DNA from: Opitutales bacterium
GTDB taxonomy: Bacteria > Verrucomicrobiota > Verrucomicrobiia > Opitutales > UBA2987
Direction: 5' to 3'
NCBI GenBank assembly: GCA_965226885.1
Contig: CBDDEL010000001.1
Coordinates: 1-35,833, forward strand
DNA: 35,833 nt
Below, piece after piece: positions 15,001 through 30,000 of the stretch. Positions within the stretch are counted from its first letter, which is position 1. Every line of letters begins with the position of its first letter. The position numbers were made by a program.

Positions 15001-18000
15001 TAAATTGCGTCCCATAAAAAAGATCGAAAGGACTGGCTGGATGGATGAATTGCGCAGTGGCATATAATTAATTTTCTTGTGAAATTTGTTTAACCAATTT
15101 ATCGATGAACTATCATGAATGACAAATTTTCCGCCTATGCCCGCCCCGAAGCCTTGGTCGATACCGACTGGCTTGCCCAAAACCTGGAGAATCCCGAAAT
15201 CCGCATTATTGAAAGCAACGAGGATGTTCTCCTTTACGATACCGGCCATGTGCCCGGCGCCGTCCATATTGATTGGCGGCGCGACTTGCAGGATGATAAT
15301 ATCCGCGATTATGTGAGCACGGAAAATTTTGCCCAACTATGCTCGCGCAACGGCATTACACCGGACACCATTTGTGTTTTTTACGGGGACAAGTCCAACT
15401 GGTGGTCTTGCTATGCTCTATGGGCCTTTCGGCTTTATGGACACGAGAAGGTCCGCATCGTCGATGGCGGCAGGAATAAATGGATCGCCGAGGATCGTCC
15501 CCTGACGCGCGATGTTCCCACCTATCCGGCTACCCAATATCCTGTGCCGGAAAAGCGGCTCGACGAAGAAATCCGGGCCTACGCCAAAGAAACCCTGGCC
15601 CATGCCGAAGCCGGAAAACCGCTCGTCGATGTGCGTTCTCCCGGAGAGTTTCGCGGCGAAATTACCCACATGCCCGATTACCCCCAGGAGGGCGTATTGC
15701 GCGGCGGGCACATTCCCGGGGCCAAAAGCAAACCCTGGTCAACCGCCGCCAATGATGACGCAACCTTCAAAAGCCGGGCCGAACTGGGGGAAATTTACAC
15801 AAGCGAACTGGGCCTCGATCCGGACGGCGACACCATCGTTTACTGCCGCATCGGTGAACGCTCCAGCCATACCTGGTTCGTCCTGACCTACCTGCTCGGT
15901 TACTCCGATGTGCGCAATTACGATGGTTCCTGGACCGAATGGGGCAACACTGTGCGCTCGCCCATCGAAAAGGGTGACTGACTGAATCCCGTGCAAAATG
16001 GAAACGGCAATTACCCCGCTAAGCTTCGGGAAATTATCGAATTTTTCGACTTTCTGGGCGAAGATGAGAAGCGTGAAAACCTGATTGCCTACTCGGATAA
16101 CGCCAGTAAACAGGAACCCCGCAAAGGGGAAACTTTTGACCTCGAAGACGTGCGCAAAGATGCCGAGTGCACCGACACAGTGGGCGTTTATCTGAAGGTC
16201 GATAGGCAAAATGAGGTAATCTTTCGAATCACCCTGGGGCCGCAGGTACAAACTCTCACCAGGGCCATGACGGCCATCCTTTGCTCCGGTTTGAACGGAG
16301 CTTCACCCGAAAGCATTGTCGAGATTCCCCAGGATTTCGTCCCCAAAATCGTGGGAGGAGAACTGGTTCGAGTGCGCAGCCAAACTATTTACTATGTCCT
16401 CGGACGAATGAAGGGCGTCTGCCGGGTTTACCTGCGCCGCCGCCTTGGCGTGTAACTAACCGTAAAAGGCGAGGGAAAGGCTTGAATCAATCTAATCCGG
16501 CTTTACAATGCTGCGGTGTCCGTGAACCCGATCTTGCTCTATTCTCTGATAGTCTTGCCGTGTATGGAGTCGATAAAGCTACGCCTCTTCATCCCGGAGC
16601 ACCTGATTGTGCGTGTCTGAAGCCTGGCCGGTGGCCGTTTTTCTCCCGACATTAACAAGGATATGATTTCGGGTAGTGTATTAAGTAGGAATGGTGGCTA
16701 ATTCTTGATTATATTGATGAATGAAAAGTCTCAGACAGGTTTCATGCATACTCTTAAGCTTGGAAAAGGAGAGGGTTTTGCGTGTGAAACGACCCAGTCG
16801 TTGGCGCAGGGTATTGTTCCATCGTTCCACATGGGCCGTTTCACCGGTTTCTTTTCCCACGGATCGGTTATGAGGAAAGACTTCATCATAAGTGCTCCAA
16901 AAGTCGCTGTAGGTGGCACATCTTTTGTAGGCCCGTGGCAGACGCTCGTAAAGTTCCCGGCAACGATACCAATCCCGAGGCCCAATGGCATAGGAGAGGA
17001 TTTGACGGGTGCGTCGGCAAAGAGCGATCCAAACCCATTGGGCATCGCTCTTGCGCCCCACAAAAGACCACAGTTCGTCCAGTTCAATGACATCATGGCG
17101 GCGGGCCGCAAGAATCGTGCTTTTGAGCGGTCGCAGCGATTGTCGTTTTTTTTAACCAACTCAAAACGGTGTTGGGACTCACCCCGAAGGCGCGCTGTAA
17201 ACCGCGTAGACTGCTGCGTTCCTGATAGACTCGAAGGATCATTTCTTTTTTGCTCTTCGGTGTATTTCACTGTGGGGTTTTCGGGGCTTTGTTTACCACA
17301 ATCATGGCAGCGGTAGCGCTGTTTATGGTTGGGCGTCTTGCCAAATTTAATGATATTTTCACTTCCACAGTGCCGCCAATTAATAATTTTAGTAACCATG
17401 CACTAAGAATAAACTGCCTAACGCTATTTGTACAGCTAAAAATACAAAATAACATTCTTTTTTTATACACTACCTGATTTCGCAGCAGTGTCAGATGAAT
17501 ATTCAGATTAGAAATCGCTTTCTTCCGCATCATTGTAGGAATCTGGATCGAACACGTCAGGCGTTATAGCATATTCTAGAAAACATATTATACAGATTTA
17601 CATTTTAAGGTAATTAAAATTTATAATAATCATAAAATTGAATTTAACCGAGATTATATTCTGATATTTAAAATCCAACTATGGATTTACAATACTGAAA
17701 TATGAATAAAAGCCGCAATAATATATTACGAATTCTCAAGATTATACCAGTGGGATAAGTCGCGATTTAAAAAGCTTGCTCAATTTTTCAACTTCACTCC
17801 TAAGATCATTGTTCAAGCGTTCTCTTGTTTCAGGACGAATAATTGCTTTTGGTGAATTTGATCCACCTAATATTGTGGCTAGCGATCTTCCAATAAATTT
17901 TTTAGTAGAGTAAGGCAGGCGGTTTGTAATTTTCATAATTGATGGAAAGAATCTTAAAGTTTTTCGGTAGTGTATAAAAAAAGAATGTTATTTTGTATTT

Positions 18001-27000: not shown

Positions 27001-30000
27001 GGTATCGACCAAACTTGGGGTCAACACCAACCAATTGTATAGGTGGAAGAGGCTCTATCTGGACGATCAGCAGGGCGAAGCCACCTCAAAGCGACAGAGC
27101 AGTCCGAAGGAGATGGCGGCCGAGATAGATCGTCTTCGCAAAGAGCTGCGCCGCTCGGAGCGGATCAACCAGATACTAAAAAAAACGGTGGGCTACTTTG
27201 CCAAGGACGAACAATGAAGTACCAGTTTGTCAAAGACAACGAGGGGCGCTTCAAGATCGAGGAAATATGCTCGGCGATGGGGATTTGTCGCAGTGGCTAT
27301 TACTGCTGGAGGCCCCGAGCGCCCTCGGCCCGGCGGATCGAGGACGAGGGAATCAAGGGGGCGATCCTGAAGGTACACAAAGAGGCCAAGGGCCGCTATG
27401 GGCATCGGCCAATGCACCGCCATCTGAAGGATGATGAGGGCATCGATTGCGGCCGTGACCGGGCTCTGCGTCTGATGCGTGAAATGGGAATCAAAAGCAC
27501 CCAGAGTAAACGCTTTAAGCCATTAAAAACCAACAGTAACCATCCCTATGGTTACAGCCCCAATGTGCTTAAAAAGCATGGCCAGCCGACCCATATCGAC
27601 GAGGTCTGGGTGGCGGACACGACCTACCTACGGACCCTGGCCGGTTGGATGTACTTGGCCACGGTGATGGACCTGTTCAGCCGACGCCTGCTGGGCTGGA
27701 GCGTTTCCAACCACAACGACGCGAAGCTGGTTGGCAAGGCCCTCAAAGCCGCGGCCATGACCCGCGGCACACTGCGCACCGGGATTATTCATCACAGCGA
27801 TCGGGGCAGCCCCTACGCCAGCGACGACTATCAGAGGCTGGTCTCTGAACTAGGCATGAAGCCGAGCATGAGCGCCCAAGGCAACTGCTACGACAACGCG
27901 GCCATGGAATCGTTCTACGGCCGCTTCAAGACCAGCACGATTCGAGGCCGCCACTTTGCCGACGAGCGCGAACTGCGATCAACTGTCTTCGAATACGTGG
28001 AAATCTTCTACAACCGATATCGCAAACATTCCTCTCTGAGTTACCAAAGCCCAGTCCAATTCGAGGAAAATATTTGCCCCCCATGGGGGGCAACGAGAAA
28101 ACAAAACCCTTTACCAAAACAAGCCGCCTGACACACTAATCAATAAACAATGAATATAAGAGAATCCCGTGTCCAACAAATCCAGTACACGTCAGACGTA
28201 AATAGATTGCATAGAGACTACTTGCTGGATAATGTCTCAAAACGTTCTTAATGGCTGAGCATACTGTCTTACGGATATGGAGAAAAATGCACCAATTGCT
28301 TTCCTTGCATTTTCAGCATCACGTGCCTTACCTTTAGCTTGACGTATCTTGCCTTCTGCTTGATGAGAGCCAGAATCTGATGACGGTTTACAACATGCAT
28401 TTCAGTGCCCGTTCGTTGGCAGCCAATGATTGTGTACTCCGAGATTTTCCATATAAACCTTCATAATCGTTGAAAATAGCTACTTTCTAATATTTCGATT
28501 CATTTTATTGCTTTCAATGTGATTTGCCAGTTCATTCTTTTGCGTCACCCATGGAATTTTGAGAATTTGCTTGCTATTAGTCTACTTAAGTAACTTATTA
28601 TTAATTATATAGCGATTATTTCAAGCAAATTTTCTTATGATGAAATAGGAAATATGGGATTATTCGTGTAATCTGTGGTTTAAGAATGTCATCGATTGAA
28701 TTATTGAAACTTTGGGGTCAACTAAATAGTCAATATCAACAATTATAACGTACAATGAATCAAAAGTGTAAAAAAAATTATTTGAAAATGGCTCTACAGG
28801 AGCCGTTTCGTATTTTTTTCCCGATTGGGGTTGCGGTGGCGTTATTAGGGGTCGCTTTGTGGCCTTTGTTTCACTGGCAAATTATAAATTTCTATCCCGG
28901 TTTCATTCATGCGCGTTTGATGTCGGTTGGGTTTTTCGGCGCATTCATCATTGGTTTTTTAACCACCGCGGTCCCCAGATTTTTAAGCGCTCCGAAGTTA
29001 AAAGATAAAGAAGTTGTATTTTTGGTTTTATTGCACCTTTCGGCCTGTATTTGTTATGCCATCGGTCTGCTCGTTTATGGTGATGCGGTTTTCCTCCTTA
29101 CGCTTGTATTTTTGAGGATATTTTTGGTAAAAAGATTCACCCGCCGGGAAGATATGCCTCCACCGGGAATAATTTTGGTCATAGGTGGAACTTCCATGGC
29201 CATGGGCGCCTGTGGTATTTTTCTTTTAAACGGTGTTTTCGGGATCGGGCTTGCCCTACACCGGATGGCCCAACTGTTTCTTTACGAGGGTTTTATTTTA
29301 TGTCCCATTCTGGGAATCGCTCCTTTTATTTTTCCAGGTTTCGGGGGTCTTCCCAACCGCCATAATTTCCCCGAAGCCCGCAAGTCCAACTCCGCCTGGC
29401 GGGCCAAGGCATGGCTGGCCGGTGTTGTTGCTTTTACCATTGCGCTATCCTACTTTCTGGAGGGATTCGGTTTGGGTTGGGTCGGAAGTTGTGTGCGCTT
29501 GGCGGCGATTGTTTATTACCTCATAAGGGAAATTCCTCTACGGTTTTCTTTTAAAACTTCGGGAAGTTTGGCCCGCTTGCTGCAAGCCGGCATACTCTCT
29601 TTGACGGTTTGGCTGGTATTAACGGTTATTCTTCCCGATTATCGGGTGACCTGGGATCACTTGCTTTTTATGGGAGGATACGCCTTGATCGTCATCGGGG
29701 TGGCCACCCGGGTGATTTTGGGGCACAGCGGCCAGGGGCATCGGTTGCGCAAGCGAATGCCATTGGCCTGGGTCATATTGTTCCTCATTTTATTGGCTAT
29801 GGCATCCCGCATAACCCCGCGGATTTTCTTCCCCAGGAGCGAATTTCGCACCTCGATTACGCTGCCATCGGGTGGATTTTCGGGCTGGGCCTATGGGCCT
29901 CGACTATTCTTCCGGCAGTAGCGATTCCGGATGTGGAGGAGTAATACGAGAACCAGGATTGAGTGAATGAATTAACTCAATCACCCGCATCCGGGTTACT

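Follow-up and report, generated by a model that had tools for sequence, protein, structure and literature searches.

A recent multi-family insertion-sequence burst in an Opitutales genome with a heavily loaded sister species

Genomes rich in insertion sequences (IS) and other repeats have been described in several symbionts. In the grain-weevil symbiont Sodalis pierantonius SOPE, 804 IS copies of four families account for 18% of the chromosome (0.83 Mb), with within-family identity above 94% and disrupted ORFs in roughly half of the copies (PMC3914690). Amoebophilus asiaticus 5a2 carries 16 IS elements of 8 families that occupy 10% of a 1.88-Mb genome, its transposases account for 23% of the genes, and its authors saw no evidence of recent transposition (PMC3196728). 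Repeats constitute a third to half of the genomes of Orientia tsutsugamushi and the Rickettsia endosymbiont of Ixodes scapularis, both with small populations, and the lacewing symbionts Rickettsia rMd and Spiroplasma sMd underwent IS-driven secondary genome expansion in parallel in one habitat (PMC13375240). The verrucomicrobial sponge symbiont 'Ca. Thermopylae lasonolidus' has a genome of ~5 Mb with ~54% G+C and ~16% pseudogenes (PMC9600693).

The window analyzed here is the whole of contig C1 (35,833 nucleotides), one of 17 contigs in the 5,479,947-base assembly (G000) of an Opitutales bacterium. IS elements occupy 30% of this genome. Genome-wide counts of exact canonical 31-mers found a second copy for 1,909,126 bases (34.8%), at least 5 copies for 1,642,093 bases (30.0%) and at least 100 copies for 1,124,910 bases (20.5%). 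De novo reference elements (n = 11) covered 1,625,752 bases (29.7%) by BLAST, and the consensus sequences of the 11 types covered 1,622,917 bases in 1,540 pieces, of which 835 are full-length. Self-BLAST of the IS-masked remainder contributed another 412,864 bases repeated at ≥85% identity for a total of 2,035,781 bases (37.1%), and placed ~1,655,052 bases (30.2%) in five or more copies. A preliminary description of this genome had reported 37.5% repeated at ≥85% identity, 30.4% in five or more copies and 21.6% with 100 or more matches, and these figures were reproduced within ~1%. The 11-type mask contains 98.2% of the bases with at least five copies. The IS share of each contig >15 kb is 14.6–37.5% (15–39% in the preliminary description), and 35.1% of the bases of C1 have at least five other copies. 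The non-IS part of the genome is 3.86 Mb, and same-genus genomes are 3.4–4.3 Mb; together with the ~1.62 Mb of IS DNA this agrees with the earlier estimate of a ~3.8-Mb genome inflated by ~1.7 Mb. The best explanation is a recent IS burst, paralleled in a sister species, in a lineage that is under weakened selection and in early genome decay (probability roughly 0.75).

The 11 types belong to seven families: IS1380, IS1, IS5/ISNCY-like, IS3, IS21, IS630 and IS4. BLAST identified 473 matches to IS1380 (218 full-length; 516,329 bases, 9.42% of the genome), 258 to IS1-a (179 full-length), 249 to a 1.8-kb IS5/ISNCY-like element (105), 193 to IS3-a (118) and 109 to IS21 (59), in line with the copy counts given previously for these families. 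Scores exceed the NCBIfam cut-offs for IS1, IS1380, the three IS3 types, IS21 IstA and IstB, the two IS630 types and IS4. Members of the IS1 family are typically ~0.8 kb with an InsA zinc ribbon, a DDE part and an 8–9-base duplication. IS1-a has all of these features: its transposase scores 111 bits with NF033558 (cut-off 100) with matches to InsA and DDE_Tnp_IS1, its length is 802 bases, and an 8-base target duplication flanks 99 of 179 full copies. IS1-b has no NCBIfam match at 1e-5 and is placed in IS1 because of its ends (GGTAGTGT), its size and an 8-base duplication at 25 of 36 full copies. The IS3 types score 319, 278 and 245 bits with NF033516 (cut-off 160), and their OrfA HTH (HTH_Tnp_1), OrfB rve core and 3–4-base duplications identify them as family members (IS3-a, 3–4 bases, 73/118; IS3-b, 3 bases, 33/46; IS3-c, 4 bases, 15/29). 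IS21 is assigned by its transposase IstA (NF033546, 256.8 bits; cut-off 160) and helper ATPase IstB (NF038214, 279.2 bits; cut-off 200) and has a 6-base duplication at 25 of 59 full copies. The IS630 types score 209.9 and 223.7 bits with NF033545 (cut-off 100), which assigns both to the family, whose members insert at TA; TWA is present at both ends of 44 of 47 IS630-a copies, and a clear target duplication was not found for IS630-b (0–2 of 11 copies). The 1.8-kb element had been called IS4, a name without support in the model scores: no IS4 model is among the NCBIfam matches listed for it, and its best scores, with ISNCY_1 (204.5 bits; cut-off 325) and IS5_1 (117 bits; cut-off 275), are like all its NCBIfam scores below cut-off. 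Pfam gives only a weak DDE_Tnp_1 match, and 69 of 105 copies have a 2–3-base duplication. A distinct 8-copy element does score with IS4_1 (253 bits; cut-off 115) and has a 5-base duplication at 6 of 8 copies.

The IS1380 family typically has a single ORF, a length of ~1.6–1.7 kb, terminal inverted repeats and a ~4-base target duplication. The element found here is 1,567 bases long (CCCGG...CCGGG) with inverted ends of 20–26 bases at 81–90% complementarity, and its transposase scores 413.8 bits with NF033539 (cut-off 180) and 550 bits with Pfam DDE_Tnp_1_4; both the model score and the structure place it in the family. Of 212 copies, almost all have YTAR at each flank. The 4-base YTAR duplication is intact at 155 of 212 copies in the flank check and 158 of 218 in the full-copy tally, and 175 of 212 keep the same TAR on both sides, consistent with the 183 of 223 reported before. 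Adjacent IS1380 copies form 20 head-to-tail junctions (17 in the earlier count), each with a 4-base YTAR spacer, and genome-wide there are no head-to-head or tail-to-tail junctions. Of 10 full dimers, 3 have a spacer that departs from the matching outer duplications. The exclusive head-to-tail order, the YTAR spacer and these three dimers would point to a circular or dimer intermediate. To our knowledge, the transposition route of the IS1380 family has not yet been worked out. The tandem arrays of the 173-base IS1380 tail noted earlier are real, and 28 pieces across the genome have an end close to position 820, at an internal TTAG hot spot.

Contig C1 had been offered as an example of an IS-rich stretch, and it bears this out with a nest at 16,672–28,194 that consists of IS1 within IS1, IS1380 within IS1380, IS630, IS3 and one end fragment (Table 1). 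The downstream piece of the split IS1-a begins at position 250, thus 8 bases (250–257) of the interrupted element are duplicated. The contig also encodes ordinary heterotroph functions, including pectate lyases, an ECF sigma factor and hydrolases.

Table 1. IS features of contig C1, with positions in the window and in each consensus.
Feature	Coordinates	Strand	Evidence
IS1-a, full length (802 b), terminal repeats GGTAGTGTAT...	16672..17474	-	Consensus 1-802, 99.6%; InsA zinc-ribbon match; ~214 other copies in genome
IS1-a 5' part (1-257), split by nested IS1-a	17966..18222	+	Consensus match
IS1-a, full length, nested in another IS1-a	18223..19024	+	Positions 1-802, 99.5%; DDE_Tnp_IS1 18635-19015
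IS1-a 3' part (250-802) of split copy	19025..19577	+	Consensus match
IS1380, full length (1,567 b, CCCGG...CCGGG)	19694..21260	+	99.87% to consensus; DDE_Tnp_1_4 550 bits; NCBIfam IS1380 413.8; transposase ORF 19721-21091, 456 aa
IS1380 5' part (1-824), split at internal TTAG hot spot	21795..22625	+	Consensus match
IS1380, full length, nested in another IS1380	22626..24192	+	100.0% to consensus
IS1380 3' part (820-1566) of split copy	24192..24938	+	Consensus match; C-terminal transposase half
IS1-a positions 1-775, truncated by next element	24937..25711	+	Consensus match
IS630-b positions 1-1058 of 1117	25710..26767	-	100%; Pfam DDE_3 + HTH; NCBIfam IS630; 323-aa transposase ORF 25738-26709, minus strand
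58-b end fragment of 1.8-kb IS5/ISNCY-like element	26793..26850	-	Consensus match
IS3-a, full length (1,328 b)	26870..28194	+	99.7%; Pfam HTH_Tnp_1 + rve; NCBIfam IS3 319 bits; OrfA 26909-27217, OrfB 27043-28131
IS5/ISNCY-like, full length (1,821 b), outside nest	31611..33431	+	99.9%; weak DDE_Tnp_1; ISNCY_1 204.5 bits vs 325

The IS copies are real insertions. A long-read metagenome assembler can be imagined to over-copy repeats or to mix strains, and the draft is in 17 contigs and was analyzed apart from its own reads. This origin is scarcely credible because the copies have differing unique flanks and family-typical target duplications, contamination is 1.8%, and only 5% of the genome is present in 2–4 copies. 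Short-read contigs from two studies (runs X1 and X3) also extend to the IS ends at the five IS of a 20-kb locus (L029). The IS-to-unique depth ratios in X1 and X3 were ~345x and 285x for IS1380, 80x and 65x for IS21, and 41x and 34x for IS630-a, which fit the 329, 80 and 48 copy equivalents in the assembly, with the qualification that run depths sum all organisms and relatives with the same IS could raise the ratios. Matching duplications are absent from ~30–45% of full copies, which is proposed to be explained by nesting and recombination between copies.

The insertions are also recent. The median distance to consensus is 1–3 bases in 9 of the 11 types and 11 bases in each of the other two, and a typical copy is 0.1–0.25% from its consensus. 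Most of the differences are substitutions, and the indels show no clustering in homopolymers. Full transposase frames are kept in 703 of 856 full copies (82%). A contig of a third sample (X5), from a near-identical strain, joins L029 position 17121 to 18699 and omits exactly the IS1380 copy and one 4-base duplication, an exact empty site; this is a single polymorphic site, taken from contigs rather than reads, at one locus. Gene conversion could in principle homogenize old insertions so that identity carries no information on age, an option raised for the SOPE copies (PMC3914690), and the unmatched duplications suggest that recombination between copies occurs. It is very improbable here, since the empty site and the retained frames speak against it, as does the divergence of small non-IS repeats (~87 and ~213 bases) to 83–92%, which shows that repeats in this genome are not homogenized in general. 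Nor was any of the nine insertion sites that could be compared with the sister species seen to be common to both, which likewise speaks against conversion. These data uphold the earlier view of a very recent multi-family burst.

The sister species (G004) belongs to the same genus, has ~90% core identity to G000 and carries a parallel load: repeats take up at least 18.8% of a 400-kb sample. A position in G000 could be assigned to 9 of the 50 repeat blocks in that sample; six of these are empty sites, one is occupied by a different IS and two are unclear. In two other relatives (G002 and G001) the contigs break off within IS termini, so their repeats are collapsed. Outside the genus, most members of the order have 0–4 first-look IS1380 transposase candidates. 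IS1-a, IS3-b and IS1380 are 99–100% identical between G000 and G004 at a core dS of 0.37, a disparity that points to recent IS exchange between the species. The same transfer signal would be expected if a free-living bacterium had been invaded by horizontally acquired IS that multiply in a naive genome, with selection undiminished and no host restriction; IS invasion bursts occur in some cyanobacteria and laboratory lines. The concerted expansion of eleven element types does not favor such an invasion. The IS5-like copies of the two species differ by 6.6% and expanded separately in each, which indicates that a permissive state predates any single invasion.

Selection has not disappeared. In silico excision shows that isolated insertions cut an ORF of at least 100 codons in 130 of 205 cases and of at least 200 codons in 96 of 205. 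Long ORFs are hit less often than random non-IS positions fall in them (63% vs 88% for ≥100 codons; 47% vs 80% for ≥200 codons). Together with a moderate dN/dS of 0.15 between G000 and G004 and a marker completeness of 96.3%, this depletion shows that purifying selection is still acting. These three observations, and the pectate lyases, ECF sigma factor and hydrolases still coded on C1, are what an invasion without a change of lifestyle would leave. Gene breakage is reciprocal in the two species. In a frame-based test, independent of gene calls and with the IS-rich G004 as the comparison, G000 has 23 broken ORFs among 151 conserved long ones (20 internal lesions, 3 truncated; 34 of 151 before lesions in the first 15% and last 5% were set aside), and 24 of 168 are broken in G004 relative to G000 (19 internal, 5 truncated). 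In each species ~14–15% of these ORFs are thus broken relative to the other, mostly without IS, which speaks against the invasion and leaves it unlikely. One of the 23 broken ORFs is itself an IS1380 fragment, and the broken genes include HPr kinase, transaldolase, xseA, an acetolactate synthase, an exosortase and an Nramp transporter. Frameshifts among them could be assembly errors in part. The in-frame stops (TAG 15, TAA 9, TGA 7) lie opposite Q, R, W, E and other residues and are ordinary nonsense changes rather than stop-codon recoding. The gene decay described earlier is borne out, and the case is not unique to G000, given the repeat load of G004 and its like level of gene breakage.

A burst under weakened selection would account for these observations as follows. 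The starting point would be a ~3.86-Mb chromosome of an Opitutaceae-like verrucomicrobium, in which 11 types of seven families moved hundreds of times very recently and added ~1.62 Mb, 30% of the assembly. Targets would include genes, intergenic DNA and, very often, older IS, producing nests such as that on C1. Recombination between copies may then have deleted parts, leaving unmatched duplications and the 173-base IS1380 tail arrays. The burst would be far younger than the split from G004, and a parallel burst there would have been supplied by IS moving between the species. The accompanying gene loss would come from IS hits, nonsense mutations and frameshifts, and the lineage would be in early decay with its purifying selection weakened. 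Transposition is probably continuing, with weakened selection as the presumed cause of the burst; the burst could have been started by newly transferred IS with lifestyle unchanged. Life in a host or in a small population may be the setting, as suggested earlier; nothing in the sequence points to a host, and the dN/dS of 0.15 does not decide between the two views. The fullest version, in which a whole genus is affected and independent IS explosions run side by side in at least two sister species (30% and at least 19% of the DNA) with IS swapping, reciprocal gene loss, the highest plain IS load and a circular or dimer IS1380 intermediate, is tentative as a whole.

G000 resembles SOPE in that several families expanded to hundreds of copies, IS cluster densely and have mediated duplications and rearrangements, pseudogenes are numerous, and a recent lifestyle shift is the reading (PMC3914690). 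Near-identical copies of several families and a raised pseudogene share are found in G000 as in SOPE, the share being frame-based and taken without an IS-poor reference. The IS content of G000 is larger (30%, 1.62 Mb, 11 types), and its copies are closer to consensus (0.1–0.25%) with 82% full frames. A close relative of SOPE, strain HS, is IS-poor, and SOPE has an identified host (PMC3914690); the sister of G000 is IS-rich too, and G000 is known from sequence. The many IS types and the large gene share of transposases recall Amoebophilus asiaticus 5a2 (PMC3196728); unlike it, G000 has an empty site, consensus-identical nested copies and no site seen in common with its sister. The load in Orientia and the Ixodes Rickettsia is mainly the conjugative element RAGE and its cargo (PMC13375240), whereas 98% of the high-copy DNA of G000 is plain IS. 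'Ca. Thermopylae lasonolidus' is likewise a verrucomicrobium, interpreted as having entered genome reduction only recently; its short-read bins (92–144 contigs) have 6–15 transposase genes, no IS burst is described for it, and the comparison made there was with Pedosphaera rather than Opitutaceae (PMC9600693). The rMd and sMd genomes, whose IS share may rival the load of G000, are from unrelated co-infecting symbionts of a known host (PMC13375240), whereas G000 and G004 are sister species. Set beside the 18% of SOPE and 10% of Amoebophilus, the load is compatible with the earlier suggestion that it would be among the highest known. If the fullest version above is true, at least two Opitutales sister species are being observed mid-explosion, and G000 would hold the record plain IS load for bacteria.

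The assembly is a draft of 17 contigs and 5,479,947 b with a marker completeness of 96.3% and a contamination of 1.8%; contig C1, in its full length, is the window. The closest named relatives of the Sua5/TsaC protein encoded in the window come from bins that bear the label Opitutaceae (~50% amino-acid identity), so the coarse placement in Opitutales is reasonable. Three measures of the repeat load concur. Exact 31-mers give a second copy for 34.8% of bases, at least five copies for 30.0% and at least 100 copies for 20.5%. Eleven element types, found de novo by clustering isolated repeat blocks by size and sequence, cover 29.7% of the genome, and their consensus sequences used as queries recover 1,622,917 b of insertion sequence (IS) in 1,540 pieces, 835 of them full-length. 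When the IS-masked remainder is also compared with itself by BLAST (85% identity), 37.1% of the genome is repeated and ~30.2% lies in at least five copies. The preliminary description had put these two shares at 37.5% and 30.4%; its counts per family were reproduced within a few percent, and the IS burst that it reported is real. The 11 types contain 98.2% of the bases present in at least five copies.

Low-copy duplication outside the IS mask adds a further 0.29-0.41 Mb in blocks of up to ~10-14 kb. Blocks of at least 1 kb number 59 and total 179 kb, and those of 9-10 kb (Table) may be IS-flanked segmental duplications, by analogy with the grain-weevil symbiont Sodalis pierantonius (SOPE). The only IS-free contigs are C2 (8,237 b, with a higher G+C content of 54.8%) and C3 (10,317 b); they may represent a plasmid, a phage or foreign DNA that was binned with the genome.

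A BLAST search of the window against the genome returned 3,388 non-self matches, and 35.1% of the window bases have at least five other copies. The sharp-edged repeat blocks are located at 16,668-28,195 and 31,610-33,435, and each has 19 to ~330 other copies. Dissection of the nest at 16,672-28,194 with the family consensus sequences resolved nine pieces (Table), separated by non-IS spacers of 100-530 b. The genes flanking the nest encode ordinary housekeeping and heterotroph functions. At the start of the window there are three adjoining minus-strand frames, two with partial matches to pectate lyase; the region repeats itself internally at 85-89% identity, has one relative on contig C10, and may hold either two paralogues in tandem or a gene that is broken. 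Two small repeats of ~87 b (42 matches) and ~213 b (46 matches) are 83-92% alike genome-wide and form an older, diverged layer of short repeats.

Table. Locations of the nest elements, IS1380 arrays and pairs, and other repeats.
Feature	Location	Strand	Detail
IS1-a, full	window 16,672-17,474	minus	consensus match
IS1-a with a second, full IS1-a inserted at positions 250-257	window 17,966-19,577		consensus match
IS1380-family element, full	window 19,694-21,260		consensus match
IS1380 with another full, consensus-identical copy inserted at positions 820-824	window 21,795-24,938		consensus match
IS1-a, truncated	window 24,937-25,711		consensus match
IS630-b	window 25,710-26,767		consensus match
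1.8-kb (IS5/ISNCY-like) element, 58-b end	window 26,793-26,850		consensus match
IS3-a, full	window 26,870-28,194		consensus match
Adjoining frames with internal repeats	window 1-2259	minus
~87-b repeat	window 28439-28525
~213-b repeat	window 33628-33840
173-b IS1380 tail arrays	C15:205443-207871; C10:266089-268003; C16:845652-847564
Abutting IS1380 pairs, examples	C10:260902-264042; C17:67005-70143
~310-b element, examples	C17:798331-798643; sister-species locus L036:234-548
Low-copy blocks of 9-10 kb	C16:546190-556541; C17:864160-873682; C15:715619-724642 and 733806-742829

Ten of the eleven types were assigned to a family, by NCBIfam models or, for IS1-b, via other features. Scores above the NCBIfam cut-off were obtained for IS1, IS1380, IS3 (three types), IS21 (IstA and IstB), IS630 (two types) and IS4. 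No NCBIfam match at 1e-5 was found for IS1-b, which is placed in IS1 because of its ends, its size and its 8-b duplication. The element that passes the IS4 model is an 8-copy type distinct from the abundant 1.8-kb element, for which the earlier label "IS4" is unsupported: its top scores are to ISNCY_1 and IS5_1, both under the cut-off, and it is called IS5/ISNCY-like here. An element of ~310 b has the same ends as the IS5/ISNCY-like element (TAGAGGCTGTCCC...GGGACAGCCTCTA) and no ORF. It occurs on C17 and C4, among other places, has 23 matches in the genome and ~10 in a 400-kb sample of the sister species G004, and is probably a non-autonomous derivative (MITE). In public sequencing run X7, a contig at locus L029 (C12:158001-178000) connects the two ends of the IS5/ISNCY-like element, right (2363) to left (543), with two letters between them. 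This junction may come from a tandem in the genome and not from a circle, because the assembly itself contains two head-to-tail junctions of this element with 2-b spacers.

Full copies are flanked by direct repeats that match the length expected for their family. Target duplications of 8 b border 99/179 copies of IS1-a and 25/36 of IS1-b; IS1380 has 4 b at 158/218 copies (155/212 with consensus coordinates, always YTAR), IS21 has 6 b at 25/59, IS4 has 5 b at 6/8 and the IS3 types have 3-4 b. The ends of IS630-a carry TWA in 44/47 copies. In most families 30-45% of copies have no matching repeat, and 726 of the 1,540 IS pieces adjoin another IS within 50 b; nesting and recombination between copies would account for the missing repeats. 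Logan contigs of four runs were placed on L029, a 20-kb locus with five single IS that was used instead of the nest because the nest holds long internal repeats. In X1 and X3, runs from two different studies, contigs of unique DNA enter the IS ends on both sides of elements. The ratios of summed depth to unique depth in X1 and X3 were ~345x and ~285x for IS1380, ~80x and ~65x for IS21, and ~41x and ~34x for IS630-a, against 329, 80 and 48 copy equivalents (bases over element length) in the assembly, which is agreement and not proof because the depths sum all organisms in a run.

IS1380 inserts only at YTAR, including two sites within itself, TTAG at 821-824 (28 and 20 pieces) and CTAA at 1395-1398. 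Pieces of the 173-b tail number 22, each begins with the inner CTAA, and they form tandem arrays of up to five units behind a full copy. We read the tail pieces as scars that self-insertion followed by homologous deletion between both copies would leave. All 20 abutting IS1380 pairs in the genome are head-to-tail with a 4-b YTAR spacer, and none is head-to-head or tail-to-tail. Ten of these dimers consist of two full copies. The same four bases occupy the left flank, the spacer and the right flank in four of the ten, and in three the outer flanks match and the spacer differs. The latter three offer a lead, as they would fit a dimer that moved, or a circular copy that integrated into one already resident. 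A literature search on the IS1380 transposition route yielded nothing usable.

The copies are young. Alignment with MAFFT in fast mode placed the median copy 1-3 positions off the family consensus in nine of the eleven types, and the median distance is 11 for both the IS5/ISNCY-like element and IS630-b. Each large family has 18-37 consensus-identical copies. Older small subfamilies lie 5-10% away (20 copies of IS1380 and 12 of the 1.8-kb element). Differences between copies are mostly substitutions and by their pattern do not look like long-read errors; homopolymer errors were rejected as their origin, as there are few short indels in runs of at least 4. The full-length frames on the transposase strand are all kept in 703 of 856 full copies. 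In run X5, another sample from the study of X1, a 552-b contig bridges L029 positions 17,121 to 18,699 and omits 1,577 b, which equals the IS1380 copy plus one 4-b duplication. Four letters fit both sides, and apart from a 15-b gap there is one mismatch in ~540 b. This contig shows an exact empty site, in a strain that is nearly identical. Synonymous divergence from the sister species is 0.37 and the copies are 0.1-0.25% off consensus, so the age of the copies would be of the order of 1% of that of the species split, provided that they drift about as fast as synonymous sites.

Four same-genus genomes, 3.4-4.3 Mb in size, are available. The sister species (4.3 Mb, 30 contigs) is ~90% identical to the genome under study in core DNA. 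It contains many IS1-a copies at 99-100% identity (84 first-look candidates versus 287 here), and IS1380 occurs at 100% identity as a few copies plus fragments. In 400 kb of its largest sampled contig (C28:1-400000), 12.7% matches the IS consensus sequences derived here and 18.2% recurs inside the sample; together the two classes cover 18.8%. IS1-a and IS3-b in the sample are 99.4-99.7% identical to the versions here. The IS5/ISNCY-like element is 93.4% identical to the version here and 99.4% among its own 14 copies, and elements of 1,465 b and 2,010 b are multi-copy there and are represented here by about four pieces at 98-99%. Nine of 50 repeat blocks of the sister species could be placed in the genome; the other 41 were unplaced, 37 because a flank was not found and four because the flanks fell on different contigs or strands. 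Six of the nine sites are empty, one holds another IS and two are unclear, and no insertion site common to both species was found among the nine. This comparison indicates that the bursts are separate in each species and post-date the split. Both draw on a common IS pool that moves across the species boundary. A quarter of the core alignments in the sample (at least 1 kb, outside IS matches; median identity 90%) are at least 97.6% identical, which suggests further recent DNA exchange between the species, partly of the 1,465-b and 2,010-b elements. Contigs of two further genomes of the genus, G002 and G001, begin or end inside IS ends, which means that repeats have collapsed in both genomes and that the sizes given for them are minimum values.

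In-silico excision of 205 isolated full copies with intact duplications restores an ORF of at least 100 codons across the site in 130 (63%) and of at least 200 codons in 96 (47%), versus 88% and 80% of 3,000 random non-IS positions. Roughly half of the insertions thus fall in long frames, a smaller share than expected by chance, and they are still being filtered, by selection or by target choice. The non-repeat part of the sister-species sample contains 193 long frames, of which 151 have a counterpart here at 70% identity or more and 42 have none. Twenty of the 151 counterparts have internal stops, frameshifts or IS and three are truncated; one of these 23 broken frames is in fact a piece of IS1380. 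Lesions within the initial 15% or the final 5% of a frame were left out of these counts: the raw count of 34/151 pseudogenes is too high, with eight lesions in the first 15% and three in the last 5%, and the early lesions, which include primase and TypA, lie in frames begun at the earliest start codon. The reverse test found 19 + 5 of 168 frames broken in the sister species. An altered genetic code was rejected because the in-frame stops use all three stop codons opposite many different residues; judged by these sequences, they are ordinary nonsense changes. Genes broken here include those for HPr kinase, an acetolactate synthase, an exosortase, an Nramp transporter and an aldehyde dehydrogenase, as well as transaldolase (disrupted by IS21) and xseA (disrupted by IS1380). 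The dN/dS between the two species is 0.15, which is moderate.

IS bursts are regarded as the opening stage in a bacterium's passage from free to dependent life, and most known cases are past their peak with many dead copies, or are without close relatives. Here most copies still look mobile and the same process runs independently in two sister species: load and decay are common to both. A link to a host, as the preliminary description proposed, is an idea. Among the strains in public runs, at least one insertion is variable, and with the relatives these strain differences allow one to measure in nature how fast insertions, IS-mediated deletions and gene losses occur. A further warning is that short-read bins of this genus conceal the IS load; because their contigs end inside IS, the genome sizes and transposase counts that they give are lower limits.

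The phenomenon is of a known kind. A literature search found no publication that describes an IS burst in Verrucomicrobiota, Opitutales included. Set against the published loads found, the present one equals or exceeds the highest, with the share in lacewing Rickettsia, described in the available text as exceptionally IS-rich (PMC13375240), not among the figures seen. The discussion in the same paper gives 35-50% repeats for Orientia and tick Rickettsia, mostly a conjugative element. Amoebophilus has 10% IS, compared with 30% here, and the available text describes these as without signs of recent movement (PMC3196728). The closest case among the published comparisons is SOPE, for which the available text reports 804 IS of four families with IS clusters and many dead copies (PMC3914690); IS make up 18% of that chromosome versus 30% here.
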